Numbered from the stretch's first letter, positions 441-64,000 are shown. The stretch is 64,000 nucleotides of DNA from Candidatus Magasanikiibacteriota bacterium (GCA_041666265.1 JBAYHH010000002.1:9096-73095); one strand, 5' to 3'. Program-made: numbers and translations. The notes: a model not told the origin generated them from the sequence alone.

Positions 441-600
441 AGATTCTTCGACTCCGTTTCACTGCGCTCAGAATGACACACGGCAATGACACACGGCATT
501 GTCATCCTGAGCGAGGCCGTAGCCGAGTCGAAGGATCTATTACTGTATATCCACAGATTCTTCGACTCCCCGCCTGCGGGCGGGTCGCTCAGAATGACAG
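441..600. repeat. Family-A GC-rich nested palindromic dispersed repeat (intergenic copy: about 1.5 units with arms GATTCTTCGACTC / GCTCAGAATGACA / TGTCATCCTGAGC / GAGTCGAAGGATC)
   Basis: The inverted-repeat arms are visible directly. The same core recurs at 11 or more other sites in the window. Confidence 0.8.
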
Positions 601-10703: not shown

Positions 10704-11849
10704 TTAAAGCTTCTCTGCTAATATTTTCCACTGCTCGACCGACAACTCCTGCGCTCGGACGGTGTTTTTTAGCCCCATTTCGTCAAAAACTTTGGCTAAT
10801 TCCGATTTTTTGGCGAGTGATGACAAGTTTTTTATCAAAAATTTACGACGATTGGCAAAACCGAGGCGAGCGATATCGAAAAAGCGTTTGGTGAACGCGA
10901 CAGATTCTTCGACTCCGCCCCGCCAGTCGGCGGGGCTGCGCTCAGAATGACAGGTGGGATCAATTGCCGGCTCACCGCCACTTGTCATCCCGAACGAATG
11001 TGAGGGATCTTCGTTGGTTTTACTTGTTGTTGGAGATTCTTCGCTTTGCCTGCCTGTCGGTAAGCAAGGCTCAGAATGACAGACATGGCCGATCACCGAA
11101 TCACTATTTTTTATATTTGATTTTTTATATTTGATTTTTATAATCGCGCTATCCACTTTTGGCTCGGGCCAAAAATTATCTCGGGTCACGACTGCCACTA
11201 TCTCTGGCTCGCCGTAATATTGCACAGCCAAAGATAATAGCGACATATCGCCCGGTCGCGCGCAAATTCTTTCGGCCACTTCTTTTTGCACCATCACGGT
11301 CATCGTCTCGGGCGGATTATTTGATTCTAAAAATTTACGAAGGACTTGAGATGTTATCTGGTATGGTAAATTCGCGATAACCTTATATTTTGTTTGGGGC
11401 GAGAATATTTCTTGTGAGCGGGTTATGCGACCGCAGTCGCATCCTTTCGCGCTCGCGCGCGAAAAAAGCGAACAAGATGTATTCTCGCCCCAATCAAAAT
11501 TCGCATGCAAAACATTCCCCCAGATAATTTGTAAATTTTTTATCGGAGCCAATCCCTCGCTTTGATCAGACTGACAAAATCGAGCCCAATATTTTTGTAA
11601 TTTTTTTTCAATCTCAAACGCGACCACTTGACCGGCGGTTTCGGCGAGCGCAAATGTCAGTACGCCAAACCCGGGTCCAACCTCGACCACGGTATCATTT
11701 TTTGTCACCCCCGCGGCCGCGATCATTTGATCGATCACTTCCGGGTTGATCAAATAATTCTGCCCATATTGACGGCTTGGGCGCAATCCGGCCTGCTGGC
11801 ATAAGTGTAATAAATAGTCGGGATTGAATAGCTTTTCGCGCATACTCAT
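10704..11849 (-). CDS. rsmA: 16S rRNA (adenine1518/1519-N6)-dimethyltransferase RsmA/KsgA, carrying three in-frame repeat-derived insertions
   Basis: The N-terminus has the KsgA signature ...LRPSRQYGQNYLINPEVIDQMIAAAGVTKNDTVVEVGPGFGVLTFALAE. At 381 aa it is about 100 aa longer than usual. The extra segments map exactly onto repeat DNA. Confidence 0.9.
   Translation of the reverse strand: MSMREKLFNPDYLLHLCQQAGLRPSRQYGQNYLINPEVIDQMIAAAGVTKNDTVVEVGPGFGVLTFALAETAGQVVAFEIEKKLQKYWARFCQSDQSEGLAPIKNLQIIWGNVLHANFDWGENTSCSLFSRASAKGCDCGRITRSQEIFSPQTKYKVIANLPYQITSQVLRKFLESNNPPETMTVMVQKEVAERICARPGDMSLLSLAVQYYGEPEIVAVVTRDNFWPEPKVDSAIIKIKYKKSNIKNSDSVIGHVCHSEPCLPTGRQSEESPTTSKTNEDPSHSFGMTSGGEPAIDPTCHSERSPADWRGGVEESVAFTKRFFDIARLGFANRRKFLIKNLSSLAKKSELAKVFDEMGLKNTVRAQELSVEQWKILAEKL
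10903..11082. repeat. Family-A palindromic repeat copy inserted in-frame in rsmA (encodes ...[56 protein letters not shown]...)
   Basis: The arms GATTCTTCGACTCCGCCCC...GCTCAGAATGACA and TGTCATCCCGAACGAATGTGAGGGATCT...GGCTCAGAATGACA are present. Confidence 0.85.
11104..11145. repeat. Family-C AT-rich short tandem repeat (AAAAATCAAATATA x2) inserted in-frame in rsmA (encodes IKIKYKKSNIK)
   Basis: A direct tandem is visible. Nearly the same unit sits in uvrC in the same frame. Confidence 0.7.
11393..11492. repeat. Family-B element (core TGAGCGGGTTATGCGACCGCAGTCGCATCCTTTCGCGCTCGCGCGCGAAAAAAGCGAA within a perfect 22-bp inverted repeat TTGGGGCGAGAATATTTCTTGT/ACAAGATGTATTCTCGCCCCAA) inserted in-frame in rsmA
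   Basis: It encodes WGENTSCSLFSRASAKGCDCGRITRSQEIFSPQ between conserved KsgA segments. The core is shared with the copies at 16356 and 29552. Confidence 0.8.
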
Positions 11850-13415: not shown

Positions 13416-16310
13416 TTAAAGTACGCGTTTAAGGTAGTGGCCGGTCGAGCTCACGGATTTTTTGGACACCTCCTCGGGCGTGCCGATGGCGATGATTTCT
13501 CCGCCCTTATCCCCGCCTTCGGGACCGAGATCGATGATCCAATCACAAGATTTGATCACATCGAGATTATGTTCAATCACCAGCACTGTATTACCTCGAT
13601 CCACCAGTCGCTGTAAAACCACAAGTAATTTTTTGACATCTTCGTAATGCAATCCGGTCGTGGGTTCGTCGAGCAGATACAAAGTTTTGGTCGTGCCATA
13701 GCGAGCAAGCTCGCGCGAAAGTTTGATCCGCTGAGCCTCGCCGCCCGATAGGGTCGGCGCGCTTTGACCCAAAGTCAAATAATCCAAACCGACCTCATTT
13801 AATATTTTTAATTTGTCGTAAATCATCGGGATGTCGCGAAAAAAATCTTCGGCGTCGGCAATCGTCATCTCCAAAATATCGGCGATTGATTTACCATTGT
13901 AATGCACAGCCAGAGTTTCGTTGGTAAATCGTTTGCCTTTGCACACATCGCAAACAATTTGCACGCTTGGTAAAAAATGCATCTCGATTTCGAGCGTGCC
14001 TTTGCCTTCGCAATTTTCGCATCTGCCCCCGGGCACATTGAAACTAAATCGACTATGACTAAACCCGCGCATGCGCGCTTCGGCGGTCGAGGCGAACAAA
14101 TCGCGGATATGATCAAAAGCCTTGGTATAAGTGGCGGGATTACTACGACTGGTGCGTCCGATCGCGCCCTGATCGATCGTGATGACGCCATCGAGATATT
14201 CCGTGCCGGTGACGCTGTGACATTTAACTTCTTTATCGGTGCGAAAAAGTTTGTTGATTACCGCTTGGCGCAAAACATCGTTCATGAGGGTGGACTTGCC
14301 CGAACCGGACACGCCGGTGAGACAAACAAAACGGCGCAAAGGAATCTCCACGGAAATATTTTTTAAATTATGTTCAAACGCTTTTTTGATTTTTAATTTG
14401 GGGGTCGAACTGCCGACATCGCGCCGTCGAAGCGGGAGCTCGATTTTCTTTTCTCCCCGGAGATATTGACCGGTGAGCGATTTTTTCGCGTCGCCGATAA
14501 TTGCTGTCCCAAAATTGTCATTCTGAGCGGAGTGAAACGAAGTCGAAAGCCTGCCCTGAGCGACAGTCGAATGGGAATCTATTCGCTTTTTGACGCCCTT
14601 GGATCCTTCGACTCGGCCTTGGGCCTCGTTCAGGATGACATTAACCGGACCGCTATAGACGATCTCACCGCCGTGTTTGCCGGCGCCGGGACCAATATCC
14701 ACCATCCAATCACTCTCGCGAATCGTATCTTCGTCGTGCTCCACCACGATGATAGTATTGCCGGCCTCGCACAGCGCGCGCAGAGTTTTGACGAGCTGAT
14801 CATTGTCGCGCTGATGAAGCCCGATCGTGGGCTCGTCGAGCACATACAGAGCGCCCACGAGTTTGGTGCCGACTTGCGACGCGAGCCGAATGCGTTGAGC
14901 TTCGCCGCCAGACAAAGTGCCGGCGCGCCGATTGAGGGTGAGATAATGCAGTCCCACATCATACATAAATTGCAGACGATTTTGGATTTCTTTTAGTACC
15001 ATGCCGGATATTTCCAATTCGCGCGGATCCATGTCCAATTCCGCCTGCGCGAAAAATTCGCGCGCCTCGGCGATCGACAAATTGGCCACTTCCCAAATAT
15101 TTTTTTGATGAATTTTTACCGCGAGCGCGTTGGTATTGAGGCGTTTGCCGGCGCACTGCGGACAGATTTCCGTGCTAAATAATTCTTTGGTGCCGAGACC
15201 GGTACAGGCCTCGCAATATCCATACGGACTATTAAATGAAAACAGGCGCGGTTCGATTTCAGGAAAAGAAAAACCGTCGTTCGGACACGAATACTGGGTG
15301 GAAAAAATCTGCTCATGGCCATCGGGATAAATCACGGCGCACAAACCATTGGACAAGTCGACCGCCGTTTCCACCGCTTCGGCGAGACGCTGGCTCACTT
15401 TATCTGTCATCCCGAACGAATGTGAGGGATCTCCACTCGTTCGTTTTTTGTGTCTTGGAGATTCTTCGCTTCGCCTGCCTGCCGGCAGGCAAGGCTCAGA
15501 ATGACAATCGTCATACGAAATTTTATCCACCACCACCTCAATCGTATGCTTATTATTTTTTTCCAAATCTATGCGCTCGCGTAAACTTTTTATTTTGCCA
15601 TCGACGCGCACTTCCAGAAATCCGCTATTGTAAAAATCGTAAAGCATCTGATAATATTCGCCTTTCCGACCACGCACCACGGGCGATAATATCGTCAACT
15701 CACCAACATTGTCATTCTGAGCGGAGCGAAGCGGAGTCGAAGAATCTATTCGCTTTCCATTGTTTTTAGATCCTTCGATTCGGCCCGCCGATTGGCGGGC
15801 CTCGCTCAGGATGACAGCGCTCATTTCATCGACAGTCATTTTTTCTATTCGGTGTCCGCACTGGGGACAATGAGGCACGCCCACGCGCGCGTATAATACG
15901 CGCAAATAATCATAAATCTCGGTGATGGTAGCGACGGTCGAGCGCGGATTGCCGGAGTGCGCTTTTTGATCAATGGAAATCGCCGGCGACAAACCCTCGA
16001 TCTCATCGACATCGGGTTTTTGCATACCACCCAAAAATTGACGGGCGTAAGCGGAAAGAGATTCAATATATCGACGCTGGCCCTCGGCAAAAATAGTATC
16101 AAAAGCCAAACTCGATTTTCCCGAGCCTGACAACCCCGTGAATACCACCATTTTGTTGCGTGGTATTTCCAGGTTAATATTTTTTAAATTGTGCTCGCGC
16201 GCGCCTTTGATGATTATCTTGTCTTTCATATTTGTTTTGAAACGCCAAATCGGCCCGAAAATCGAACCGCCTAAAACACTACCATGAAAAGAGCGTGGGT
16301 ATAATACCAA
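13416..16310 (-). CDS. uvrA: Excinuclease ABC subunit A (UvrA) with three in-frame family-A repeat insertions
   Basis: Two ABC ATPase modules are present ([23 protein letters not shown]; [15 protein letters not shown]), plus Zn modules and LSGGEAQRI signatures. The likely true start is MKDKIIIKG (about 16229). Three segments ([33 protein letters not shown]; [35 protein letters not shown]; [37 protein letters not shown]) coincide with repeat DNA. Confidence 0.95.
14516..14640. repeat. Family-A palindromic repeat, in-frame in uvrA
   Basis: TGTCATTCTGAGCGGAGTGAAACGAAGTCGAAAG...GGATCCTTCGACTCGGCCTTGGGCCTCGTTCAGGATGACA. Confidence 0.85.
15405..15506. repeat. Family-A palindromic repeat, in-frame in uvrA
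   Basis: TGTCATCCCGAACGAATGTGAGGGATCTCC...GAGATTCTTCGCTTCGCCTGCCTGCCGGCAGGCAAGGCTCAGAATGACA. Confidence 0.85.
15710..15816. repeat. Family-A palindromic repeat (full unit with outer and inner inverted repeats), in-frame in uvrA
   Basis: TGTCATTCTGAGCGGAGCGAAGCGGAGTCGAAGAATC...GATCCTTCGATTCGGCCCGCCGATTGGCGGGCCTCGCTCAGGATGACA. Confidence 0.9.
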
Positions 16311-16355: not shown

Positions 16356-16475
16356 CGACAAAAATAATTTACGACAATTTGTCTCTTGAGCGGGTTATGA
16401 CGCCGAAGCGTCATCCCCGAGACCTCGCGGTCGAGGAAAGCGAAAGAGATAAATTGTCGTAAATTATTTTTGTCG
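16356..16475. repeat. Family-B element: core TTGAGCGGGTTATGACGCCGAAGCGTCATCC...GAAAGCGAAAGAG within a perfect 30-bp inverted repeat (CGACAAAAATAATTTACGACAATTTGTCTC / GAGATAAATTGTCGTAAATTATTTTTGTCG); the right arm overlaps the last codons and stop of uvrB
   Basis: The palindrome is visible directly. The uvrB C-terminal codons VLKRQK* are encoded by the right arm. Confidence 0.8.
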
Positions 16476-19728: not shown

Positions 19729-20487
19729 TTATTTTACCACTTCGCCTTCGATTATGTTTTTAGAAGATGGCTTATTTTTTCGGAACAACCAAACCTGTTG
19801 CGCGCCCATGAGCACTGTGCTCACAAACCAATAAAGAGTGAGGCCGGAAGGCAAACTAAGACCGATAAGCACAGTCATCGCCGGCATCATATAGGTCATT
19901 TGTTTGTTCATCATCGCCATCATGCTCTCGTCTTTAGATCCGGTGCCGGCATTCGCCGGAGGTCTCTGGCTCACTGTCATGCGCGCTTGCCAATATTGAG
20001 CGGCGCCAGCCATCACAGCCAAAGTCCAGTTGGCCTTCAGCATGTTAAAATGTCCGAATGAAATCGGATTGATAACGCCCGGGCTCGCTACAAAAGAGTA
20101 TAATTGCTCAGTCAAATTATGCGAAGCTAAACCATCGCGCAATACCATATAGAGCGCGATCAAAATCGGCAACTGGATGATCAAAGGCAAGCAGGAAGCA
20201 AACGGATTAACTTTGTTATTTTTGTACAATTCCATCAGCGCCTGTGATTGTTTTTGCTGATCACCCGCGTATTGTTTTTTGATCTCATCCATCTTGGGCT
20301 GGAGCTCTTGGAGAGATTTTTGCGCTTTGATCGCGGCGTTGGTCAAGGGATACACGAGCACTCGGATGAGCACTGTCATCGCGATGATCACGAGACCGAC
20401 ATCATGGCCCGGAATGAAATTATACAAAGCGACAAAAATATTAAAGATCGGCTGATAGAGCGCTGCATTAAAAATTTGAGAAAACAT
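19729..20487 (-). CDS. yidC: Membrane protein insertase YidC/Oxa1 family (short Gram-positive-type form)
   Basis: ...IAMTVLIRVLVYPLTNAAIKAQKSLQELQPKMDEIKKQYAGDQQKQSQALMELYKNNKVNPFASCLPLIIQLPILIALY... Confidence 0.9.
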   Translation of the reverse strand: MFSQIFNAALYQPIFNIFVALYNFIPGHDVGLVIIAMTVLIRVLVYPLTNAAIKAQKSLQELQPKMDEIKKQYAGDQQKQSQALMELYKNNKVNPFASCLPLIIQLPILIALYMVLRDGLASHNLTEQLYSFVASPGVINPISFGHFNMLKANWTLAVMAGAAQYWQARMTVSQRPPANAGTGSKDESMMAMMNKQMTYMMPAMTVLIGLSLPSGLTLYWFVSTVLMGAQQVWLFRKNKPSSKNIIEGEVVK

Positions 20488-20503: not shown

Positions 20504-21748
20504 TTAGACCGTTTTTTCGTCTGTTTTTGTTTCTTCGACGACTGCTTCTTCGTCTTTTATTTCGACCAGGGCTTCACCAGCCAACACTTCTTCGCTACTC
20601 ACTTCTTGAGTTCCTCCTTCTTCTTTCACTTTGATTTTCCAACCGGTAAGCTCGGAAGCCAAGCGCACATTTTGCCCCCCGCGTCCGATCGCGAGCGAAA
20701 ATTGATCGGGCGCGACGAGAGCAGTGGCCAATTTTTCTTTTTCTTCCAATTCGACGCGCAGGACTTTGGCCGGAGACAAACCTTTGGCCACATATTCGCC
20801 GGCATTTTCATTGTATGCGATCACATCGATTTTTTCTCCGCCCAGCTCCTCGATGATGGTATTGATACGACTGCCGCGCTGACCGATACATGATCCGATC
20901 GGGTCAATCGATTCGTCGCTCGTCCACACCGCCACCTTTGATCTCCAACCGGCATCGCGAGCCACCCCTTTGATGATGATGGTACCATCGGCGATTTCCG
21001 GAATTTCTTGAGTAAACACTTCTTTGACCAAATTTACATGGTTGCGGGACAATAAAATTTCCGGTCCGCGCGCGGTCATATTCACCGACATCACATAAAA
21101 TTTCATCTTGGCGCCGGGCTTGTAGTGCTCGCGGTTGATTTGCTGATCGGACAAAAGGACACCAGTCACTTTGCCGATATCGATAAGCACTTTTCGTCCT
21201 TCCACGCGCTGAATCGAACCGACAATAATTTGATTTTCTTGTTTTTTGAAATCTTCAAACACCATGCCTCGTTCCGCTTCGCGTAATTTTTGAATAATCA
21301 CTTGCTTGGCGGTTTGAGCGGCCATGCGACCGAACTCGTGAGTGATCTCGAGCTGAATCTCAAGAGTTTCACCTACCTTGACTTTTTTCTGAAAAAATTT
21401 GGCGTCCTTGATCATCATTTCCAATTTCGGATTGAAGTGCGCCAAATCAGCCGTTTCTTCTTCGGTGAGTTCACGGCCTTCGGCTTTGGCTTTTTCACGG
21501 CGCGCGGCCAACTCTACTTGAGCTTTTTCCAACACCTCTTCGTCGATATCTTCGACGACGGTTTTTACATCCCAAGCCTGCATATCGCCGGTTTCGGGAT
21601 TAAATTTGACTCTGATATTTTGCTGTTTGTTGCCAAAATCCTTGCGATAGGCGGCCGCGAGCGCGGTCTCAATGGTGGCCAAAACCACATCATACGACAA
21701 ATTTTTTTCGTCGCACAAGGCCTGAATTGCTTTGGTGATGTCGGACAT
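20504..21748 (-). CDS. nusA: Transcription termination/antitermination factor NusA
   Basis: N-terminal domain, S1 and two KH domains are present (...GSCIGQRGSRINTIIEELGGEKIDVI...). The C-terminal acidic tail is typical. Confidence 0.95.
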   Translation of the reverse strand: MSDITKAIQALCDEKNLSYDVVLATIETALAAAYRKDFGNKQQNIRVKFNPETGDMQAWDVKTVVEDIDEEVLEKAQVELAARREKAKAEGRELTEEETADLAHFNPKLEMMIKDAKFFQKKVKVGETLEIQLEITHEFGRMAAQTAKQVIIQKLREAERGMVFEDFKKQENQIIVGSIQRVEGRKVLIDIGKVTGVLLSDQQINREHYKPGAKMKFYVMSVNMTARGPEILLSRNHVNLVKEVFTQEIPEIADGTIIIKGVARDAGWRSKVAVWTSDESIDPIGSCIGQRGSRINTIIEELGGEKIDVIAYNENAGEYVAKGLSPAKVLRVELEEKEKLATALVAPDQFSLAIGRGGQNVRLASELTGWKIKVKEEGGTQEVSSEEVLAGEALVEIKDEEAVVEETKTDEKTV

Positions 21749-21896
21749 ATAAAAAATTTAAAATAAAATATCAAAAAGCAAAAATATTTGATTTTTGAGT
21801 TTTTATATTTGATTTAAAAAAGGCGCCTTCGATTAAGCGCTTTATGCTATATTGTCAATAGTATAGCACGGGAGACAGCGCTTGTCAATAGCCAAT

Positions 21897-22570: not shown

Positions 22571-23410
22571 TTACCGCAGTATTATATCATTTTTTTGGTC
22601 AGTCCGCCAGATTTCAATCAAAGCCCGCTCCAAATGACGCATGACGCGCAACGATGGATGGCCGAAGGTATTTTTTCCGACCGATATGATGGCTATTTGC
22701 GGAGCAACTGCGCGAATGAAATCATCTCCCGAGGAGCTGTCGCTGCCATGATGTCCAACTTTTAAATAAGTGGCGCGCAATGCCGGACAAGTCGATGATG
22801 CCGTGCAATGCTTATCGACCAAAGCGTTTTCCAGCGACACCTCGGCGTCGCCCATAAACAAAAAACTTTTACTTTCATGGGATAATTTAAAAACAATCGA
22901 AGAATTATTACTGTCCTTTTCCTTGGCGGCCAAACCAAGCGCCCCATCGGGTGAAAAGAATTCTAATGATGTACCGGCAATCGTCCACAACTCGTGTCTG
23001 GTAATATTTTTGATTTTTGACATTTTATTTTTGATATTTTCGTTCCACACCTGCCAATATGGATCGTTTTCTTTGCTCAGACCATTTTCAATGATATTTT
23101 TGACATCATAGCGACGCAAAACATCGACACAACCTCCGTAATGATCACCGTCGGGATGAGAAATCAAAAGATAATCGATAGTACGATCATAAAATGGCAA
23201 ATACTGTCCCAACTTTGATAATATTTTTTTATCCGGCCCGCAATCGACGAGCATTTTTTGGCCGTTGGAAAAATTTATGAGCGCGCTATCGCCTTGGCCG
23301 ATGTTAAAAAATATGACGCGAAAACCGGTGAATTGAAAAAAATGATAATAACAAAATAAGCCAAGCAGTAAAACAGCGCCAACAAATAAAACAATCAATG
23401 ATTTTTTCAC
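22571..23410 (-). CDS. ComEC-type metallo-beta-lactamase-fold domain protein (stand-alone C-terminal ComEC nuclease domain), N-terminal TM
   Basis: ...NIGQGDSALINFSNGQKMLVDCG...LLISHPDGDHYGG...KVGHHGSDSS... gives the MBL motifs. Confidence 0.8.
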   Translation of the reverse strand: MKKSLIVLFVGAVLLLGLFCYYHFFQFTGFRVIFFNIGQGDSALINFSNGQKMLVDCGPDKKILSKLGQYLPFYDRTIDYLLISHPDGDHYGGCVDVLRRYDVKNIIENGLSKENDPYWQVWNENIKNKMSKIKNITRHELWTIAGTSLEFFSPDGALGLAAKEKDSNNSSIVFKLSHESKSFLFMGDAEVSLENALVDKHCTASSTCPALRATYLKVGHHGSDSSSGDDFIRAVAPQIAIISVGKNTFGHPSLRVMRHLERALIEIWRTDQKNDIILR

Positions 23411-24028: not shown

Positions 24029-25655
24029 AAATTAAAAATATTATACCGGCATACGATATCGCCATCGTCGCTATCCCCACTCGCATATCAACGGCGGCCA
24101 AACTCCACCCGGCAAACCACTGCGTCAATATTATAACATACTTTAGACCGATGCCGGCTATCCAAGCTACGACTTGCCCCAAAGGAAATAATACCAACGA
24201 AAGCAGGACGGAAATAAAACCAAACAGCATCAGCCAGGGAATTATCCACAGTACGAGCACATTGACGACGGGCGCGACGATTGATAATCGACCAAATTGA
24301 AATAGGATTAGGGGCAAAGTGATGATAATCGCGGAAAGAGTAGAAATAAAAGTTTCAACTATCGCAGAATATATCACATTATCAACCTGAGCGGAGCGAA
24401 GGATCTGGTCACACTCGCATCTATTTGATAGATTCTTCGCGGAATTTATACTGAGCGGAGCGAATGTGCTCAAAATGACAGACTTTAAAACCGGACTCAA
24501 ATATACGAGGCCCATGGTCGCTAAAAATGACAACTGAAACCCCGCGTCCCAAATCAAAATATACGGATTCATCAAAAGCATCACGGCGGCGGTCAACGCC
24601 AGCACATTACCCATTTTTGATAACCGGCCCATTTGCTGGGCAATCAAAACAATAATCCCCATGATTCCGGCGCGAATTACCGAGGCCGAAGCGCCGGTAA
24701 ATATTACAAATAGTATTATTCCGGCGACACAAGCCCAAAAAGCTTGCGGGCGATACAAACCAATAGTGATAAGCGCGGTCATCAAAACAGACGCGATGAT
24801 ACTGATATTATATCCGGAAATCGCGATGATATGCGTGATGCCGACCCGGCTGAAATCATCTTTTAATTCCTGTGATAATCCGGCGCGCGCGCCATAGAGC
24901 AATCCGGCCATGAGCGATGACTCGGGTTCGGGCCAAAGTTTTTCTACTTGGGTGTTGATTTTGGATTTGAGAGAAAAAATTAATTTTAGCGGCGTTCCCC
25001 ACCAATTGTCATCCCCGCGAAAGCGGGGATCCAGACACCATTCACTCGATGCCTGGCTGGTCGCGACTGGATTCCCTTTTTCAAGGGAATGACAGCCGGT
25101 GATGGACGGTCGATAGCAAATCGAATAGATGCCGTCTTTAGCCAAATACTTTACATAATTAAATCGGGAATCATCTGAATTTTTGGGCGCTTGCAAATCA
25201 CACTTGATACGCAACACATCACCGAATCGATATTGCGGATGAAGCGGAGCATTGATAAGAACACGGCCTTTTTTACCGCTAATATTTCCGACCACATACT
25301 TCGCTCCGGCGATGCCAATATCTGGTTCCTGCGCCACCTGGCCGACAAATTCCCATTTATTTCCATTGTAATACGCGATTTGTTTTTCTGTTATCATTGG
25401 TGTCGCTGACAAATACCTGACCCCTCCGAGAATAATAAATATTATCATCAGTAACGCGCAACGCGCCCGCCAATCATACCAAAATAATATCAACAAAAAT
25501 ATTAATGCGAGCAAAAGAATATATAATCGAAATAGCCAATATTTTTCCCAATCAAACACTGAAAAAATGGAAACACCGGTAATGAAACAAAAACAAAGCG
25601 CCAAAAACGCTTTGCTTTTTGAATTGACAAATTTTTTGATCCCCTCCCCTTTCAT
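23970..25655 (-). CDS. comEC: ComEC/Rec2 DNA-uptake channel, transmembrane competence domain (DUF4131 plus Competence), with two in-frame family-A repeat insertions
   Basis: A multi-TM competence domain is present (...ELKDDFSRVGITHIIAISGYNISIIASVLM...). The inserted peptides LSINSAKNLSNRCECDQILRSAQVD and CHSLEKGNPVATSQASSEWCLDPRFRGDDNWWGT map to repeat DNA. Confidence 0.85.
   Translation of the reverse strand: MKGEGIKKFVNSKSKAFLALCFCFITGVSIFSVFDWEKYWLFRLYILLLALIFLLILFWYDWRARCALLMIIFIILGGVRYLSATPMITEKQIAYYNGNKWEFVGQVAQEPDIGIAGAKYVVGNISGKKGRVLINAPLHPQYRFGDVLRIKCDLQAPKNSDDSRFNYVKYLAKDGIYSICYRPSITGCHSLEKGNPVATSQASSEWCLDPRFRGDDNWWGTPLKLIFSLKSKINTQVEKLWPEPESSLMAGLLYGARAGLSQELKDDFSRVGITHIIAISGYNISIIASVLMTALITIGLYRPQAFWACVAGIILFVIFTGASASVIRAGIMGIIVLIAQQMGRLSKMGNVLALTAAVMLLMNPYILIWDAGFQLSFLATMGLVYLSPVLKSVILSTFAPLSINSAKNLSNRCECDQILRSAQVDNVIYSAIVETFISTLSAIIITLPLILFQFGRLSIVAPVVNVLVLWIIPWLMLFGFISVLLSLVLFPLGQVVAWIAGIGLKYVIILTQWFAGWSLAAVDMRVGIATMAISYAGIIFLIYESQNKNSRVNAWLRSRGR
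24386..24480. repeat. Family-A palindromic repeat, in-frame in comEC
   Basis: CCTGAGCGGAGCGAAGGATCTGG...GATTCTTCGCGGAATTTATACTGAGCGGAGCGAATGTGCTCAAAATGACA. Confidence 0.8.
25007..25094. repeat. Family-A variant palindromic repeat, in-frame in comEC
   Basis: TGTCATCCCCGCGAAAGCGGGGATCC...GATTCCCTTTTTCAAGGGAATGACA. Confidence 0.75.
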
Positions 25656-25685: not shown

Positions 25686-28600
25686 CTACGCCACAATGCT
25701 CACTAATTTTCCTTTGACATAAATAACTTTTTTGGGCGCCCGGCCCTCGAGCCATTTTTGCACTTTTTCACTGGCGAGCGCTCGGTCTTTGGCGTCCGTG
25801 TCGGAAATGTCAAACGGCACGACGATCGTGTCGCGCAATTTCCCATTGACCTGAATGGCCAGAGTGATTTCGTTGTCTTGAATTTTGGCGGGATTGTACT
25901 TTGGCCAATCGGCATTGACCACGCTACTTTTTTGATCAAGCATTTCCCACAGCTCTTCGCATAAATGCGGAGCAAACGGCGCGAGTAACAGGGTGAGATT
26001 TTTTAATTCATCAAAGCTGGTTTTTTCTTGCGCGCGCAATTCATTGACCCAAATCATGAGCTGTGAAATCGCGGTATTGAATTTCATCTCACTGATATCT
26101 TCCGTGACTTTTTTTATGGTCTTGTGCATGATGCCGACAGACGCGTCAGCGGTAAAATTTTTATCCAAGCGCGGAAATAGATCCCAAACTTTTTCCAAAA
26201 ATCTTTTGGCGCCCACGACTCCTTGCATATTCCAAGCGCAGGGCTGATCAAACGGCCCCATGAACATCTCGTAAACCCGCATCGCGTCCGCGCCAAAACG
26301 CGCGACGATGTCGTTGGGGTTGATGACATTATTCCAACGCTTACTCATCTTGCGACCGTCTTCGGCGAGGATTACACCCAGATTTTGTAGGCGTTTGAAC
26401 GGCTCGTCGTGCGCCACCATACCGATATCAAATAAAAATTTGTGCCAAAAACGAGCGTAAATCAAATGGCGAGTGGCATGCTCGGCTCCGCCCACATAAA
26501 AATCCACCCCGCCTTCGCCCTGCGCTTCGCTTGGGCTTCGCGGGGCAAGGCCGGATCCAATCCAATATTCAATCACTTTTTTGTCCCAGATGTATTTTCC
26601 TTTGACTCTCGGCATCGCGTAGGCCAAATAATACCAACTACTCCCCGCCCATTGAGGCATCGTGTTGGTCTCGCGCTTAGCCGGCCCGCTACATTTCGGG
26701 CATTTAGTATTAACCCATTTTTCGATAGTCGCGAGTGGTGATTCACCGGTGCCACTGGGTTCGTAGTGTTTGACTTTGGGGAGCTCAAGAGGAAGTTCTT
26801 CGTCGTCCACTACCGACCAACCCGAGTCAATGGACGCTCGCAATACCGCCGGCTCCGACTCCACGGCCCCGCCTCGACTGCTAAAATGATAATTCTGCGG
26901 AATAACCCACCACAAATCCGCCCCTAAATTTTTTTCCAGCTCAACTAAGTGCTCTTTTTTTATAATCGGTCGATGGATATCCCCTAAAACCACAATTTTG
27001 CCACCGTTGATTTTTATCTTTTTCCAATCAAATTGCCAATCACAGCTCGCCACCACTTCCGGACGATCCTGATCATTGAATCTGGGCCGCACCACCGGAT
27101 CCACCAAAACCGTACGAGCGATTTTTTTATTGATTGATTCCAAAATTCGATAAGTCACCGGACCGCCCAAGCTATGGCCGACCAAAACCGTATCTTCATC
27201 GATGCTAAATGGCGAGTTCTCCAAAACATACTTTGCTTGTTCGTTGACATTGGGATTGGTGGTATTCGGCAAATCCGGATTCCAGACCCGATGACCATCT
27301 TTCTCCAGCTCGGTTTTGAGCCACGGTTTGAAACCACGACTTGAATTGGAGGTAAAACCGTGAATTAAAATATAATTAAATTTTTTATTCGCGCACGCCT
27401 CACATTTTACCAGTGGGATCGGCTCGCCCCAATAGCGCTGACGCGAAAATACCCAATCGCGGAGTTTGTATTGAGTTTTTTTCTTGCCAATGTTTTTTTC
27501 TTCGAGCCAAGTGATCATTTTTTGTTTGGCTTCCGGTGTTTTTAAGCCATTGAGAAAATCAGAATTTGTGGAGATACCACCGCTGACATTACATTTTTCA
27601 CCTAACAATATTTTAGTCATTTCAACATCTTGATCTTTTTGAAAATTATCCGAAAAAGGTTTACTGGCGCTTTCTACTGAATACGCGTCTGGAATAACAA
27701 CACATCTAATAGGCAGATCATATTTTTTCGCGAACTCCCAGTCACGCTCATCATGCGCCGGCACGGCCATGATGGCGCCGGTGCCGTAATTGCCCAAAAC
27801 ATAATCGGCCACAAAAATCGGCACCTGCTCGCCATTCGCCGGATTAACTGCTTTTATTCCTTGGATTTCAATGCCGGTTTTTTCTTTGGCCAATTCCGTG
27901 CGCTCCATCACGGTTTTATTTTTGGCATTTGCAATATATTCGTTTACCTCTTTTTGATTTTTGATGTTAAATTTTTGATTTCTCAATAATTCGTGTTCAG
28001 GCGCTACCACACAATAAGTACACCCAAAAAGAGTATCGGGACGGGTGGTGAATACTTCGATAGACAAAGATTCCTCCGCTCGGCCTTGGGCCTCGGTCGG
28101 AATGACAGCGAATTTAACGAGTGCGCCCTCGCTTTTGCCAATCCAATTTCTCTGCATTTCTTTGATCGGCTCCGGCCACTCGGTCAATTTATCAATATCA
28201 TTGAGTAGTCGCTCGGCATAATCGGTAATTTTGATCACCCACTGGCGCATCGGTTTTTGCTCGACGATACTGCCACAGCGTTCGCATTTGCCGTCATCAA
28301 GGTCTTCGTTGGCCAGACCGGTCTTGCAACTCGGACACCAATTGATCGGCTCGTTTGATTCAAACACTAAACCGCGTTTATACATCTCGATAAACATCCA
28401 TTGGGTCCAACGGTAATACTCCGGGTCGGTAGTATTCACTTCCCGATCCCAATCATAGGTGAACCCCAAAAGTCCCAATTGTTTTTTAAAAACCTGGACA
28501 TTTTTTTCCGTGGACTCGGCCGGGTGCATTTTATTTTTAAGCGCGTAATTTTCGGCCGGCAACCCAAAAGCATCCCAACCCATCGGGTGAAGCACATTGT

Positions 28601-30678: not shown

Positions 30679-31941
30679 TTATCTAAGCTTCCTTTTAGAC
30701 CGATTAAATTTAATCGCGAAACGATGCGCTTCGTCGCGTACCTGAATTAATAATTTAACATTGGCATAAGCCCATTTTTGGATTTTCAGATCGCGATCGC
30801 TAAAAATAATCTCATTGTTTTTTCGTGTTGGTCCTTTGGCAATGCCAATCACCGGGGTCGTTATTTTTGCGAAAGATAAAATCGATTTAACTTTATGCAC
30901 TTGAGGCACACCGCCATCAATCAAAATTATATTCGGCATGGGCCATTCGTCATGGCGAATACGACGAGAAATAACTTCGGCTAAGCAATCGACATCGCTT
31001 TGCCCCACTACAGTTTTGATATTAAATTTCCGATACTCTGATTTTATCGGCCCACTCTCGTCAAACACTACCATGCTCCCCACTTTATCCGTATCGCCCA
31101 AATTGGAAATATCGTAGCCTTCGATGCGGATATGCCCCGTATTTCGACCGAAAAAGTGGAGATCTCTCGCTTCGTTCGGGATGACAGCGTTGGTAAACCC
31201 ACTGTTTAATAGTGCGACATCTTGAATATGACGAAGCGCTTCGATCTGATCGCGCAACCGGCCCGCCTCTTCGAAATCTCCATACTTGGACGCGAGCTTC
31301 ATGCGATTGTTTAATTGATTCAGAAGCGACCGCTTTTTCCCGGACAAAAATAGCACCAACGGTCTAATCACTTTTTGACGATAATCAAGCGCGCTAATCT
31401 CTCCACTGCACACCCCGAGACACTGTCCAATCTGACGATATAGACATGGCCTGCCTTGCTGTGGCTGACAAAATGACACCGAAAATAATTTGCGCAGTAT
31501 TTTTTCAAATTCACGCATTTTTAAATGTGGATAAGGACCAAACAATATATTTGATTTTTGATATTTTATATTTGATTTGATTTCATGCTCACGCACAAAT
31601 TTCACCTGCGGATATTTGTCTTTCGAGATCGCGATGTAATTCCAGCTTTTATCGTCTTTCCAATCAATATTATATTTCGGGCGAAATTTTTTGATTAAAT
31701 TTCCTTCGAGAATTATCGCTTCCAAGGCCGAGTCGGTGGATTGTGTTTTTAAATTTACCACCTCATGAATCATTGCTTCGATCGGACGCACAGTGCGCGG
31801 ACCGGTGAAATAACTGCGCACCCGATCACGCAAACTGGTGGCCTTACCGACATAAATTAATTCACGCTCGGAATTGAAAAACAGATACACACCGGGAGTA
31901 TCTGGTAATTTCTTTAACTTTTTTTCGATAACGCTCTTCAT
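30679..31941 (-). CDS. uvrC: Excinuclease ABC subunit C, compact form (GIY-YIG, UvrBC-interaction and RNase-H-like endonuclease domains; lacks the C-terminal (HhH)2 domain), with in-frame family-C and family-A repeat segments
   Basis: GVYLFFNSERELIYVGKATSLRDRVRSYF (GIY-YIG); ...KYGDFEEAGRLRDQIEALRHI (UvrBC); RIEGYDISN...; only 420 aa. KSNIKYQKSNIL is encoded by the AT-rich tandem repeat. Confidence 0.85.
   Translation of the reverse strand: MKSVIEKKLKKLPDTPGVYLFFNSERELIYVGKATSLRDRVRSYFTGPRTVRPIEAMIHEVVNLKTQSTDSALEAIILEGNLIKKFRPKYNIDWKDDKSWNYIAISKDKYPQVKFVREHEIKSNIKYQKSNILFGPYPHLKMREFEKILRKLFSVSFCQPQQGRPCLYRQIGQCLGVCSGEISALDYRQKVIRPLVLFLSGKKRSLLNQLNNRMKLASKYGDFEEAGRLRDQIEALRHIQDVALLNSGFTNAVIPNEARDLHFFGRNTGHIRIEGYDISNLGDTDKVGSMVVFDESGPIKSEYRKFNIKTVVGQSDVDCLAEVISRRIRHDEWPMPNIILIDGGVPQVHKVKSILSFAKITTPVIGIAKGPTRKNNEIIFSDRDLKIQKWAYANVKLLIQVRDEAHRFAIKFNRSKRKLR
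31161..31186. repeat. Family-A partial repeat, in-frame in uvrC
   Basis: GATCTCTCGCTTCGTTCGGGATGACA. Confidence 0.6.
31546..31587. repeat. Family-C AT-rich tandem repeat, in-frame in uvrC (encodes KSNIKYQKSNIL)
   Basis: Coding strand: AAATCAAATCAAATATAAAATATCAAAAATCAAATATATTG. Confidence 0.7.
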
Positions 31942-45954: not shown

Positions 45955-46082
45955 ATGAAAATATTTAATTTCGAATTTTGAATTTCGAACTATATTTAAT
46001 TGTTAATTTTGCGATTTTGGAATTTATTATTTGAGATTTGTTATTTATTTGGAATTTGTAATTTTATATTTGAGATTTATCG

Positions 46083-54595: not shown

Positions 54596-55586
54596 CGCGC
54601 TCGACGCGGAAATAATTTGCGCCGAAGTTTGTAAAAAACCGCGAGCGTATATTTTGACGCATCCAGAATTTTTTGTAACCAAGGCGCAAGAAAGAAAAAT
54701 TTTGGCTTTATTCGATAGGCGTCAAGCGGGCGAACCACTCGCCTATCTCACCGGCCGCAAAGAATTTTACGGACTGGATTTTTTTGTGGACAAGCGAGTG
54801 CTGGTGCCGAGACCGGAGACGGAATTGATGGCGGAGACAGCGATTGATATAATTTTGAATTTTGAATTTCGAATTTCGAATAAATTTCGAAATATTAATA
54901 TCAAAAATAATACGGTGCTAATCGACATCGGCACTGGCAGTGGGTGCGTGCCGATTGCCATTGCCAAAAAAGTGATAGCTTCCCATTCGACTGTCGCTCA
55001 GAGCAGGCTTTCGACTCGCGGAGTTTACCCTGAGCACAGTCGAACGGGCTCCGCTCAGAATGACACTACGGTGATGGCCACCGACATTTCCGCGGACGCG
55101 CTCGCTGTCGCCAAAAAAAACGCCCACCGACATGGTGTAAAAATCAAATTTTTACAAGGCGACCTGCTGTCGCCGGTTATCAAATTCCTTATTCCTAAAA
55201 CCTTTCACCTTAAACCTACCACCTCACACCTAATCATCACCGCCAATCTCCCCTATGGCTGGAAAGCCTGGAAAAATAACTGCTCAATGGCAACACGCGG
55301 ACTGAAATTTGAACCGGCCAGCGCGCTATACACCGGAAAAAAAGGTTTGGAATTGTACGAAAAACTATTCAAACAAATAAAATCGCTTTTACTCCTCAAT
55401 CCTTACCTGCCTACCGGACAGGCAGGCTCCTTAATCCTTCTCATTGAATTTGATCCGCGCCAAACTGTCATGTTAAAAACACTTGTAAAAAAACACCTGC
55501 CGACCGCAAGTGTTTTAATCAAAAAAGATTTAGCCGGCCATGATCGCGTGGCGGTTATCTCCATTACCTACTCACCTCCAGCGTAA
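54555..55586 (+). CDS. prmC: Release factor glutamine methyltransferase PrmC/HemK, with two in-frame repeat insertions (AT-rich and family-A)
   Basis: ...LAYLTGRKEFYGLDFFVDKRVLVPRPETE...IDIGTGSGCVPIAIAKK[IASHSTVAQSRLSTRGVYPEHSRTGSAQNDTT]VMATDIS...ITANLPYG.... The upstream insertion NFEFRISNKFRNINIKNN comes from the GAATTTCGAATTTCGAA repeat. Confidence 0.9.
   Translation: MITLKTLLQQSKIDALDAEIICAEVCKKPRAYILTHPEFFVTKAQERKILALFDRRQAGEPLAYLTGRKEFYGLDFFVDKRVLVPRPETELMAETAIDIILNFEFRISNKFRNINIKNNTVLIDIGTGSGCVPIAIAKKVIASHSTVAQSRLSTRGVYPEHSRTGSAQNDTTVMATDISADALAVAKKNAHRHGVKIKFLQGDLLSPVIKFLIPKTFHLKPTTSHLIITANLPYGWKAWKNNCSMATRGLKFEPASALYTGKKGLELYEKLFKQIKSLLLLNPYLPTGQAGSLILLIEFDPRQTVMLKTLVKKHLPTASVLIKKDLAGHDRVAVISITYSPPA
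54836..54900. repeat. AT-rich short tandem repeat (TTTTGAATTTTGAATTTCGAATTTCGAATAAATTTCGAAATATTAATATC), in-frame in prmC
   Basis: A direct tandem of GAATTT(C/T) units. Confidence 0.65.
54983..55065. repeat. Family-A palindromic repeat, in-frame in prmC
   Basis: CCATTCGACTGTCGCTCAGAGCAGGCTTTCGACTCGCGGAGTTTACCCTGAGCACAGTCGAACGGGCTCCGCTCAGAATGACA. Confidence 0.8.
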
Positions 55587-61776: not shown

Positions 61777-64000
61777 TTACAAATACTTCCCCGTCCAACT
61801 TTTCTTGCATTTCTTGATCACCCCGGGCACGCCCTCGGCAATGATCTCGCCACCGTGTTTGCCTCCATCCGGACCAAGATCGATCACCCAATCGGCACAG
61901 CGAATGACATCGGTATTATGTTCGATAATCAAAACTGAATTGCCTTTTTCCACCAAGCGGTTCAAGACACCGAGTAGTCGCTTGATATCCTCGAAATGCA
62001 AACCGGTGGTCGGTTCGTCCAAAATATACAAAGTGTTGCCGGTGGATGGGCGCGCGAGCTCGGTCGCGAGCTTGATGCGCTGGGCCTCACCGCCCGAGAG
62101 CGTGGTCGCGGGTTGGCCAAGCTGGACATAGCCGAGTCCCACCTCGCGCAAAACTTGCAATTTTTCCGCGAGCGACGGTATGCCCGCAAAAAACAAACAG
62201 GCTTCTTCGGCAGTCATCGCCAAAACCTCGGCGATATTTTTACCGCGATAATGAATCTCCAAAGCATCCTGGTTGTAACGCGTGCCATTGCATTCGGCAC
62301 ACTCCATATATACATCAGCGAGAAATTGCATCGGAATGCGGATATATCCCTCGCCGGCGCACGCTTCGCACCGACCGCCGCCTTTGACATTGAAAGAAAA
62401 TTTGCCGGCGTCAAACACGCGCATCTTGGCTTCGGGCAAAGCCGCGAATAGATCGCGAATCAAAGTGAAAATGCCGGTATAGGTGGCGGGATTACTGCGC
62501 GGGGTGCGTCCGATCGGATCTTGATTGACCGCGATCACTTTATCGATATTTTCAAACCCTTTAATACATTTGTGTTCAGCCGGCTCTTCTTTGGAACGAT
62601 AAAAATGCTTATTGAGCGCCTTGCCTAAAATGTCGATAATCAGAGACGACTTGCCCGAACCGGATACGCCGGTAATGCACACCAATTTTTGAAGCGGAAT
62701 ATCGACATCGACATTTTTCAGATTAAACGCCTTGGCGCCAAGGATTGACAACGCGAGATTTTTCTTGGCCGGTGACTTGGATTTTTTGGGATCGGCTGTA
62801 TTTTTACCTTCGCGTTCGATGCGCGCCACACCGGACAAATATTGGCCGGTCAAAGAATTTTTTACTTTTTTAATATCAGCGACTGTGCCCTCGGCCACGA
62901 TCACACCGCCTTTGGTGCCGGCGCCCGGGCCCACATCGATCACCCAATCAGCCGCTTTCATCATCTCACTATCATGCTCGACGACGATCACCGAATTGCC
63001 GAGATCACGCAAATATTTAAGGGTAGAAATAAGTTTGCTGTTGTCGCGCGGATGGAGGCCGACCGACGGTTCGTCTAAAATATAAATCACGCCAGTCAGA
63101 CCGGACGACAATTGCGTCGCGAGGCGCACGCGCGTCACCTCACCACCGGACAAAGTATTCATCGAACGATCCAGACTCAAATACGACAAGCCGACTTTAT
63201 CGAGATTTTCGAGGCGCGGTAAAGTCTCGCGAATGATCGACTCGGCGAGACCGGGTTTGCCTTTGTTTTTTTCATTTTTATTTTTACCCAAAAGCGCGAG
63301 TAATTCGTCGATGCTTTGACCGGCCAAATCGGCAATGTTATGCCCACCCCATTTGACCGCGAGCGATTCACGGCGCAAGCGTTTACCGTGGCACTGCGGA
63401 CACACTTGCTCGCGCATATACTGCTCGATCTCTTTGCGCACATAATCCGAATCAGTCTTGAGGTGGCGCTCGGCCAAATCAGCGACCACGCCGGCGAATG
63501 TTTGTTGCTTGCCATCCACCAAATAAGTGTCTTTGCCGGTGCCACTTAGTAAAATTTTAATAACTTTTTCGGGAAATTGCGAAACCGGAGTGTCCATCGA
63601 AAAACCATTTTTGAGCGCCACCGCCGTGAGGATCTTTTGGTAGCCATTTTGATTGCCGGTGATGCGCGTCCAAGGCTGAATAGCACCCTCGGCCAAAGTG
63701 AGGCGAGGATTGGGTAAAACCAAACCGGCGTCCACCTCCATCGTCACGCCGAGGCCGGTACAGCGCGGACACGCGCCGTAGGGACTATTAAAAGAAAAAT
63801 TGCGAATGTCGAGCACGGGCATGGTATTACCGCATTCGGAACACAGGCCGACGGTGGAAAAAACAAAGTTAGATCCTTCGCTTCGCTCAGGATGACAATT
63901 AGTGGCGATGGTCACGAGACCATTGCTCAAATCAAGCGCTGTATCCACCATCTTGGCCGGATCTTGTTTTTTGATGTCGGTGATTTTTCCGGTCACCAAA
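61777..64000 (-). CDS. uvrA: Second UvrA paralog (excinuclease ABC subunit A-like), N-terminus truncated by the window end; contains a family-A repeat insertion
   Basis: ...[19 protein letters not shown]...LAEGAIQPW...CPQCHGKRLRRESL...LSGGEVTRVRLATQL...[11 protein letters not shown]...[15 protein letters not shown]...; the inserted CHPERSEGSNFVFS maps to repeat DNA. Confidence 0.9.
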   Translation of the reverse strand, partial: LVTGKITDIKKQDPAKMVDTALDLSNGLVTIATNCHPERSEGSNFVFSTVGLCSECGNTMPVLDIRNFSFNSPYGACPRCTGLGVTMEVDAGLVLPNPRLTLAEGAIQPWTRITGNQNGYQKILTAVALKNGFSMDTPVSQFPEKVIKILLSGTGKDTYLVDGKQQTFAGVVADLAERHLKTDSDYVRKEIEQYMREQVCPQCHGKRLRRESLAVKWGGHNIADLAGQSIDELLALLGKNKNEKNKGKPGLAESIIRETLPRLENLDKVGLSYLSLDRSMNTLSGGEVTRVRLATQLSSGLTGVIYILDEPSVGLHPRDNSKLISTLKYLRDLGNSVIVVEHDSEMMKAADWVIDVGPGAGTKGGVIVAEGTVADIKKVKNSLTGQYLSGVARIEREGKNTADPKKSKSPAKKNLALSILGAKAFNLKNVDVDIPLQKLVCITGVSGSGKSSLIIDILGKALNKHFYRSKEEPAEHKCIKGFENIDKVIAVNQDPIGRTPRSNPATYTGIFTLIRDLFAALPEAKMRVFDAGKFSFNVKGGGRCEACAGEGYIRIPMQFLADVYMECAECNGTRYNQDALEIHYRGKNIAEVLAMTAEEACLFFAGIPSLAEKLQVLREVGLGYVQLGQPATTLSGGEAQRIKLATELARPSTGNTLYILDEPTTGLHFEDIKRLLGVLNRLVEKGNSVLIIEHNTDVIRCADWVIDLGPDGGKHGGEIIAEGVPGVIKKCKKSWTGKYL
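63871..63897. repeat. Family-A partial repeat, in-frame in uvrA paralog
   Basis: AGATCCTTCGCTTCGCTCAGGATGACA. Confidence 0.65.

Follow-up and report, generated by a model that had tools for sequence, protein, structure and literature searches.

The uvrA gene of a Candidatus Magasanikbacteria genome (Patescibacteria, or Candidate Phyla Radiation, CPR) lies at 13416..16310 on the minus strand of the 64-kb stretch of DNA analysed here (the window, to which copy counts refer), has a likely start at 16229, and remains an open reading frame (ORF) across three copies of a nested palindrome that recurs elsewhere in the window. This raises the question of what the repeat is, how it came to lie inside genes, and whether the host proteins carry its translation. 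We interpret the elements as palindromes of the repetitive extragenic palindrome (REP) type, belonging to the CGTC/TGTC superfamily that includes the Rickettsia palindromic elements RPE-4 and RPE-6, which were inserted as DNA into coding genes of this Magasanikbacteria genome; we put the probability of this interpretation at about 0.8.

A DNA repeat within and between genes

A first-pass annotation, made from the sequence of the window, had placed a repeat of about 50–110 bp at 12 or more positions. The number is borne out: a BLAST search seeded with seven copies, and then a reading of the sequence itself, gives ~12 loci and ~20 arms of a repeat of the form TGTCATYCTGAGCG…GAGTCGAAGRATC. With up to two mismatches the outer arm TGTCATTCTGAGCG has 16 matches where 0.34 are expected, a number reached in none of 100 shuffles, and the inner arm GAGTCGAAGAATC has 9 where 1.55 are expected. 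The size range is slightly too narrow, as the raw lengths of the uvrA copies are 125, 102 and 107 nt. These are the site C element (14516..14640), a dimer in which a mini-unit is nested (14541-14592) and which lies in the linker of the two ABC halves; the site B element (15405..15506), of 34 codons; and the site A element (15710..15816), again a dimer.

Ten of the 12 loci (~83%) are intragenic, with three in uvrA, two in comEC and one each in a second uvrA, uvrC, leuS, rsmA and prmC, host identities that are supported by Pfam. Because long ORFs make up 90% of the window, this is the proportion expected of insertion that is blind to coding, and the repeat shows no avoidance of coding sequence. 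The two intergenic loci that had been noted earlier are both present, at 442-599 and 35588-35638. The first consists of a single unit on the minus strand (442..478; TGTC tag, outer arm, short middle and inner arm, with exact arms), 3′ of a 3011-aa ORF, and a full head-to-head dimer of 100 nt (500..599), which is the best-preserved palindrome of the window, with a DNA fold of −32.5 kcal/mol. The second is a composite unit on the minus strand, between an AAA_14/DUF4143 gene and groEL.

The peptide CHSEPCLP(A/T)GR(R/Q)SEESP...SHSFGMT had been read in both RsmA and UvrA, which we confirm, and the underlying DNA arms of the uvrA site B copy and the rsmA copy are near identical although the two genes are unrelated. 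This near identity, together with the existence of intergenic copies, argues for a DNA origin of the segments and not for protein convergence. It also bears on the alternative that the segments are lineage-specific low-complexity linkers that arose by chance or convergently, or that the genes are pseudogenes or assembly chimeras made by the repeats. UvrA linkers do differ among relatives even where there are no repeats, and one gene of the window, a sulfatase gene (51260-53070), is split into two overlapping ORFs just 3′ of a run of eight C (~52422-52429). We nonetheless find this explanation hardly credible, as the likeness is at the DNA level and is seen in both orientations, in intergenic DNA as well as in unrelated genes; the host ORFs are intact, with the conserved motifs of UvrA retained and its core confidently modelled; a Joint Genome Institute (JGI) protein from an independent assembly (P0008) is 100% identical across 71% of UvrA; and orthologous elements are present in relatives from other samples. 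The sulfatase split is a frameshift or sequencing error in a homopolymer, with no repeat involved.

The hairpin potential that had been proposed is evident in the fold z-scores, which are −7.95 for the intergenic dimer and −5.86 for uvrA site A, and then −3.6 for site B, −1.45 for site C and −0.31 for the rsmA dimer. The palindrome is weaker in the apparently older copies, which fits insertion followed by decay under constraint at the protein level only. There is a weak hint of strand bias, in that the TGTC strand is on the minus strand of the window in seven of eight single units, irrespective of gene orientation (p = ~0.07).

Anatomy of the unit and its relation to known palindromes

Two copies of one unit, placed head-to-head, make up the nested palindrome; the unit is 35-60 nt long with an inner middle of 5-30 nt, and most units are found as such dimers, of 100-125 nt. 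An exact-pattern scan with one genome per species (TGTCATYCTGAGCG, 5-30 nt, GAGTCGAAGRATC) yields at least 120 loci with 144 units in these, and a mismatch-tolerant search yields 208 distinct units. Pairs within 200 nt of each other at the loci retrieved are mostly head-to-head (59, with 9 tail-to-tail and 13 in the same orientation). In the unit model the TGTC tag is unpaired and A5-T6-Y7-C8-Y9 pairs with R8'-G9'-R10'-A11'-T12' as a 5-bp stem; G10-A11 then stands opposite G6'-A7' as a tandem G·A, followed by a G12-C5' pair, a bulged T4' and a C13-G3' pair, and the unit is closed by a GC-rich inner hairpin of variable length, often a GCGAAGC mini-hairpin. The 3′ end is an unpaired C and then variable bases, TGC being the commonest next triplet (27 of 144 units among the matches listed).

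The tandem G·A is invariant in all 208 units. Tag position 4 (C) faces a C in 205 of them and is therefore taken as unpaired, and the stem starts with A5-T12' in 187 and T6-A11' in 205, with which the formal count described below agrees. Pair 7-10' is CG in 145 units, TA in 51 and something else in 12, and pair 9-8' is TA in 195 and CG in 10; in the exact-pattern units the two degenerate positions covary (C/G 108, T/A 34, T/G 1, C/A 1). A formal covariation count over 42 units with a 10-nt middle finds 98.7% of cells paired compared with 88.1% in shuffles, none of 500 of which reach the observed values; both sides change in six of nine pairs (43 cells), and registers shifted by 1-3 columns have only 24-49% of cells paired. 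Copies with longer inner hairpins fold into the predicted architecture. Two other readings of the core were rejected by eye, a hammerhead-like one because there is no unpaired CUGA turn, and a k-turn because there is no 3-nt bulge beside the G·A pairs. An Rfam scan of the window at the gathering threshold found one tRNA only, and permissive scans of the intergenic elements and of a further repeat family, D10 (described below), gave nothing or spurious miRNA-precursor matches. No Pfam family corresponds to the insert peptides, with E values as high as 10 allowed, and a protein search with the 68-aa peptide of the RsmA insert yielded no candidates, as the exact words in common were too few.

Di Nocera, De Gregorio & Rocco (2013, BMC Genomics 14:522; PMC3733652) described a superfamily of REPs tagged by CGTC, with TGTC as a common variant and CCTC also found, in which an 8-9-bp stem begun by A-T and T-A carries a 4-5-nt loop and a 3-nt tail with the consensus CCA; head-to-head dimers predominate, tail-to-tail dimers are rare, and there is no associated transposase. 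The same study equates CGTC-1 with R. conorii RPE-6 and with Neisseria dRS3, and CGTC-4 with RPE-4. It finds the elements mostly in intergenic DNA, in five phyla and four families, with Patescibacteria not covered, and reports intragenic copies that encode 20-80 extra residues in uvrA, uvrB, polymerases and tRNA synthetases, for example as two dimers in Thioalkalivibrio uvrA, two inserts in each of both Opitutus terrae uvrA genes, and in R. conorii uvrB.

The units of the window share with this superfamily the unpaired TGTC tag, the A-T/T-A stem start, the head-to-head dimers and the occurrence in several phyla. They differ in that the main unit is longer, with a stem broken by the tandem G·A and the bulged T, a variable inner hairpin in place of the loop, and what appears to be a tail of C plus variable bases instead of CCA, and also in their Patescibacteria host, in the ~83% of loci that are intragenic here, and in a range of many more phyla than five. 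Because the main unit agrees in tag, stem start and dimers, with no transposase domain among the scanned ORFs of the window, and departs in its dimensions, we regard it as a new family of the CGTC superfamily. One of the two comEC copies that had been assigned to the repeat (25007..25033, plus strand, read LDPRFRGDD) is something different, a textbook short CGTC-1 REP with a TGTC tag, an 8-bp stem, a 4-nt GAAA loop and a CCA tail, and is the only copy of the window with the canonical dimensions; the other (24380..24532) is a degenerate dimer with an extra arm and reads ...SFLATMG...VILSTFAP...ILRSAQVDN.

The likeness to Rickettsia palindromic elements pointed out in the first-pass annotation appears to be more than analogy, since the units have the tag, stem start and dimer arrangement of the superfamily with which PMC3733652 equates RPE-4 and RPE-6. 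As far as the elements RPE-1 to RPE-10 (Ogata et al. 2000, 2002) are summarised in PMC10969869, the parallels are palindromes of ~100-150 bp that lie in frame in unrelated housekeeping genes, an extra peptide that is compatible with the fold, and a host with a reduced, host-dependent genome. Frequent in-frame insertion is regarded in PMC10969869 as a speciality of RPEs, and the title of Ogata et al. 2002, as cited there, calls protein-coding palindromes unique to Rickettsia; the elements described here extend them to the CPR. Unlike RPEs, they have a host of a different phylum, and the unit is shared with free-living bacteria from many phyla, in which most copies are intergenic.

Two other classes of small repeats invite comparison. 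As with the REP doublets called REPINs and their REP-associated tyrosine transposases (RAYTs) (Bertels & Rainey 2011; Nunvar et al. 2010; PMC3337134, PMC6006769), single units occur and a tetranucleotide is found at the foot of the hairpin, but the tag is TGTC and not the guide tetranucleotide GT[AG]G, and whereas REPINs are species-specific and vertically inherited, the unit of the window is near identical across phyla. MITEs, or miniature inverted-repeat transposable elements, such as Coxiella QMITE1, Neisseria Correia, ERIC and BOX (PMC10969869, PMC5896051) are likewise small and non-autonomous, have terminal inverted repeats and occasionally form in-frame fusions with host ORFs; the elements here differ in that neither a target-site duplication nor a parent insertion sequence was seen, and in being self-folding hairpins and not pairs of transposase-binding ends.

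Intragenic REPs of the CGTC/TGTC type, that is RPE-like elements, are thus known already, in uvrA, uvrB and tRNA-synthetase genes among others. New are the Patescibacteria host, the density, the lack of intergenic preference and the recurrent UvrA sites, together with a longer unit that has an invariant tandem G·A core and a very wide cross-phylum range. The suggestion that such elements had not been described for this kind of genome therefore holds in part: literature searches found no paper tying Patescibacteria or CPR to RPE, MITE, REP or REPIN repeats, and full-text searches with DNA and peptide motifs returned unrelated primer matches only, while the unit is present in many phyla and the phenomenon is published. 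Orphan CGTC-type REPs gain a wider taxonomic range and a unit model supported by covariation, and with these a phylogenetic co-occurrence search for a mobilising or binding factor becomes feasible.

Reading frames and the fate of the inserted segments

Each arm has two stop-free frames per orientation, which read CHSE or VILxE forwards and FGMT or AQND backwards, and a third frame that has a TGA. All ten intragenic loci are stop-free in the frame of their host, and the lone arm in the third frame (comEC 24519-24532, TGTCATTTTTAGCG) has lost its TGA. For elements in the VIL...AQND frame, the length from the TGTC end to the GACA end is 2 mod 3, and the flanking bases restore the frame. A second peptide form, STVAQ(G/S)RLST...SAQND(N/T), had been reported twice in UvrA and once in PrmC; its SAQND end does occur twice in UvrA, while the STVAQ piece is there once, at site C, and again in PrmC. 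This piece belongs to a second, nested mini-unit, whose copies at 14541-14592 (uvrA site C) and 54965-55016 (prmC) are 88% complementary.

UvrA has 937 aa here, and homologues at 70-79% identity, nearly all from Magasanikbacteria or Patescibacteria, range from 847 to 959 aa, with many at 847-850 aa that have no insert at all. A HMMER alignment to Geobacillus UvrA (2r6f) falls into five blocks, three of whose breaks are the three elements, at 2r6f residues 161/168 (site A), 230/231 (site B) and 601/603 (site C); the fourth reflects the "insertion domain" (residues 305-418), which is missing in this lineage, so that even insert-free homologues have only ~848 aa. An AlphaFold2 model built from 76 aligned sequences (mean pLDDT, the predicted local distance difference test score, 75) has the three inserts as coil and the remainder folded and confident, with pLDDT below 50 at residues 150-174 (A), 241-274 (B) and 537-572 (C) and in two short loops.

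The three sites have different histories among relatives. When UvrA is aligned at the codon level with its three closest relatives, this genome alone has an element at site A. At site B, P0001 also carries one, which agrees in its TGTCAT... and ...GGGATGACA ends but not in its interior, and at site C so does P0003, whose palindrome is shorter (TGTCATCCTGAGCG...CCTCAGAATGACA). Between the window and P0003 the site C copies are set apart by indels of 12, 3 and 36 nt, each a multiple of three, which suggests that the segments are translated and not removed. In UvrA of a relative that is syntenic with the window (L122, from a different sample, with the order uvrB, uvrA, DUF4015, rsmA, hypothetical, giant ORF), the insert is absent at two of the three sites. 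The second uvrA of the window carries a single unit (63869..63897, minus strand, read CHPERSEG) in an ORF truncated by the window end, and the second uvrA of a relative likewise carries an element.

Other hosts give a similar picture. In RsmA, which has a single unit at 10903..10952 (minus strand, read as CHSERSPADWRGGVEES), whose fold fits the unit model, and a decayed 102-nt dimer at 10980..11081, ending ...SHSFGMT, with arms like those of uvrA site B, a HMMER alignment with a solved structure breaks at query residues 115-146 and 241-317; the protein has 381 aa here and 279 aa at the syntenic locus, where every insert is missing. PrmC, whose element (54960..55065) comprises the nested mini-unit and one TGTC arm, read SHSTVAQSRLST...GSAQND, breaks at residues 139-168 in alignment with 1sg9, that is at 1sg9 141/143, with a small gap at an AT-rich repeat described below. 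A relative encoded on metagenome contig L129 is likewise interrupted at this site and, like the PrmC of the window, carries NLPY and not NPPY, which therefore is a lineage trait; the statement that the interrupted genes keep all catalytic motifs needs this qualification, the ORFs being open and the motifs conserved in UvrA. The single unit in leuS (28060..28107, minus strand) is read as VIPTEAQGRAEESL and accounts for ~8 residues more than in Thermus LeuRS, and uvrC has a single decayed unit (31155..31186, minus strand) with a VIPNEARDLH-type peptide, recognised by BLAST and reading frame. Because structure alignments break at the inserts, and because close relatives have no insert or a shorter orthologous copy, we take the inserts to be lineage-specific, as the first-pass annotation had expected of an alignment of orthologs.

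Some of these hosts have peculiarities of their own. LeuRS (leuS 25686-28811; 1041 aa) has a 193-residue insertion at residues 475-667, between Thermus residues 443 and 447, which has a weak alpha/beta-hydrolase match (Abhydrolase_6, residues 481-584, E 3.6e-8), is domain-sized and bears no relation to the repeats; LeuRS also lacks the segment that corresponds to Thermus 580-637. A possible split of uvrC, suggested by a 420-aa ORF beside a 211-aa ORF, was rejected as the neighbour is Sua5/YrdC by Pfam. The Pfam spans of nusA (20504-21748) and yidC (19729-20487) are ~40 residues longer than the NusA_N and 60KD_IMP models, and these genes may hold further inserts.

The stop-free frames at ten loci, the indels in multiples of three and the low pLDDT of the inserts together point to translation of the segments as in-frame extra loops, as had been proposed. 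An alternative is that the elements are present in the genes and not in the proteins, being excised from the mRNA like introns, hopped over by ribosomes or spliced out as mini-inteins. Strong hairpins would bring the ends of an element together, and ribosomes reportedly bypass GC-rich palindromes, called "byp", in Magnusiomyces mitochondria. We consider removal at the RNA or protein level very unlikely, because it would impose no constraint on frame or stops, yet no intragenic locus has a stop in the frame of its host, the TGA is gone from the copy read in the third frame, and orthologous copies differ by multiples of three only. Moreover, the intergenic copies are not flanked by split genes (their neighbours are AAA_14/DUF4143, groEL and the end of the giant ORF), and no Rfam family matches. 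Bypass elements have matching take-off and landing codons and internal stops, whereas the elements here are stop-free and in frame, and the peptides of 10-45 residues end in GMT or QND with no intein blocks, unlike mini-inteins, which have an N-terminal Cys or Ser and a C-terminal HN before Cys, Ser or Thr.

A metagenome scan for the repeat subfamily returned 23 loci (21 distinct), of which about half are within long ORFs. Six of seven hosts identified there are supported by Pfam (PrmC, MiaB, HolA, a PLP-dependent enzyme, a PyrK-like protein and a protein with a type IX secretion system (T9SS) C-terminal sorting domain), and the seventh, a P-type ATPase, was identified by motif only. The MiaB insert is between its two domains and HolA has two inserts. 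In the P-type (CopA-like) ATPase the insert directly precedes ILQ(L/I)AASLE(K/S)xSEH at the same position in two different CPR genomes, Daviesbacteria L078 (~1957-2080) and contig L144 (~3159-3322).

Recurrence at one site raises the possibility that the segments are kept for a function, in tuning nucleotide-excision-repair proteins, as flexible linkers, or as mRNA hairpins that pause translation at domain boundaries. Of 120 UvrA proteins of the Magasanikbacteria type, 24 have 10 or more extra residues at site A, 39 at site B and 53 at site C, with arm-derived motifs (VILN...AQDD or CHSE...FGMT type) in 11, 17 and 25 of those, respectively. The site C element begins at one and the same residue in many lineages, so the pattern is at least partly one of old inheritance, and the PrmC and P-type ATPase elements also are at the same site in different genomes. 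Seven of the ten intragenic loci, moreover, are in repair-type genes (uvrA, second uvrA, uvrC and comEC), a further and independent case of uvrA and repair genes as favoured REP hosts, since the same bias was reported in other phyla, with speculation about a mutator phenotype (PMC3733652). Set against this are the many UvrA homologues of 847-850 aa with no insert, the great diversity and predicted disorder of the inserts at any one site, and the decay of the palindromes after insertion. Unrelated peptides from an AT-rich repeat (NFQFPISN...) occupy site C in other lineages, which marks it as a tolerant spot and fits tolerance better than function. On balance retention for function seems unlikely as the explanation, although the idea overlaps with that of inserted REP-type DNA and does not replace it.

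Distribution, mobility and other features of the window

Among the matches listed, the exact unit is present in well over a dozen phyla: Acidobacteriota, many Clostridia, Bacteroidota, Fibrobacter, Actinomycetota (including cultured Bifidobacterium and Gordonibacter), Planctomycetota, Verrucomicrobiota, Ignavibacteriota, Omnitrophota, Chloroflexota, Eremiobacterota, several proteobacterial classes including Rickettsiales (loci L001 and L099, from metagenome-assembled genomes), and the CPR groups Komeili-, Roizman-, Davies- and Parcubacteria. Only 25 of the 144 units among these matches are in an ORF that continues for 60 codons or more to either side, and in GC-rich genomes several of these ORFs are likely spurious, so outside the CPR the unit is mostly intergenic. 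Relatives differ sharply in density, with no locus bearing an arm in L121 (22.5 kb), two in L122 (22.6 kb), one in L124 (13.7 kb) and ~12 in the 64-kb window, which argues for a recent burst in this genome. Tandem arrangements also occur: in Eremiobacterota L098 (6442-7260) the full element is present in six copies with a 136-nt period, and in Acidobacteriaceae KBS 146 (L019 4798-5347) three units ~257 nt apart are inside a longer repeated block.

No mobilising enzyme came to light. There are no transposase domains among the scanned ORFs of the window, and no RAYT (Y1 HUH) gene either in the window or beside units in the at least 120 loci. At the loci retrieved there is no excess of ORFs with inverted units on either side (12 plus/minus pairs 200-5000 nt apart, compared with 14-20 for the other orientations), and a candidate transposase between same-orientation units ~2 kb apart (L011, L021) was rejected, as the ORFs there encode ATPases of the AAA_14/DUF4143 type and a chromate transporter. 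Copies are nearly absent from collections of plasmids (4 records) and phages (1 record), which so give no sign of spread by such vehicles. In the window, an AAA_14/DUF4143 ATPase gene (34250-35443) is 145 nt from the intergenic element at 35588-35638, and in the Coriobacteriaceae locus L021 two such genes (2825-4003, 4483-5883) alternate with repeat units; this gene family is a candidate associate of the repeat, although the adjacency may be coincidence.

We envisage the following course of events. Copies would reach new sites without a transposase encoded in cis, perhaps by a single-strand hairpin route of the kind used by RAYT/IS200 enzymes, which we offer as an analogy only. In a compact genome that is ~90% coding, landings would mostly be in genes, as seen at 10 of 12 loci. 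From the pattern of what is left, the survivors would be insertions that keep the frame, in a stop-free frame, and fall in tolerant loops or inter-domain linkers; frame conservation and modelling suggest that these give rise, through transcription and translation, to disordered, hydrophilic loops of ~10-45 residues. Comparison with relatives indicates that the palindrome then decays while the segment evolves through in-frame indels and nested insertions, and that some segments, such as UvrA site C, turn into lasting components of the protein across the clade. Such dense repeats distort protein lengths, domain calls, alignments and phylogenies, and annotators should expect REP-derived loops of 10-80 residues.

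Several observations weigh against this interpretation. The main unit lacks the 8-9-bp stem and 4-5-nt loop of CGTC REPs, and with standard nearest-neighbour parameters its 37-nt consensus does not fold; support for the unit model comes from covariation among units that were gathered by sequence pattern and are mutually related. Codon-by-codon comparison with empty sites reveals no target-site duplication flanking the inserts, and at site A the insert replaces ~10 native codons and is not a clean addition. The occupation of the three UvrA sites in many lineages could reflect inheritance and loss, site targeting or selection, and the preference for repair genes, which comprise ~19% of coding sequence (binomial estimate ~6e-4, for a category chosen post hoc), hints at something beyond neutral tolerance. 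Translation as extra loops, finally, is inferred from frame and indel patterns and from modelling.

A T-GA-GC...GC-GA-A core recurs in the main unit, the nested mini-unit and the D10 repeat. A more speculative proposal, which we consider doubtful, is that the TGTC hairpin with this core, which is invariant, is a pan-bacterial DNA or RNA module, mobile or recognised, that a conserved host factor handles in place of a dedicated transposase, and that in the CPR it has been repeatedly co-opted as protein linkers at fixed sites (the UvrA inter-half linker, PrmC and the P-type ATPase). If true, this would explain why near-identical units are found from Acidobacteriota to Clostridia to CPR.

The D10 family has copies at 11387-11500 (in rsmA), 16356-16475 (over the uvrB stop and upstream of uvrA) and 29555-29715 (intergenic). 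Its core, GAGCGGGTTATG-hairpin-CATCC-hairpin-AAAGCGAA, is capped by a 20-32-bp stem with a different sequence in each copy, and its two inner hairpins show compensatory substitutions; it folds with extreme stability, at −63 to −67 kcal/mol (z −10 to −13), and its junction, T-GA-GC...GC-GA-A, is the tandem G·A core of the main unit. In rsmA the copy is read in the host frame (...NFDWGENTSCSLFSRASAKGCDCGRITRSQEIFSPQ...), and the syntenic relative does not have it.

An AT-rich repeat family (TTTGATTTTTGATATTTTATATTTGATTT and relatives) has copies that include 11100-11143, 21752-21820, 23000-23050, 27944-27987, 31541-31584, 46015-46082, 54843-54886, 56635-56712 and 61124-61193. Many minus-strand genes have a copy just upstream, placed as a promoter would be. 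The family also occurs within ORFs, as KIKYKKSNIKN in RsmA, ILNFEFRISNKFRNINIKN in PrmC and KFNIKNQK in LeuRS, and the NFQFPISN... peptides at UvrA site C of other Magasanikbacteria are related to it. RsmA thus holds three repeat families and PrmC two.

The sole tRNA of the window (59373-59446) is called as tRNA-Ile with the anticodon TAT, which is uncommon in bacteria, where AUA is usually decoded by a lysidine-modified CAU anticodon.

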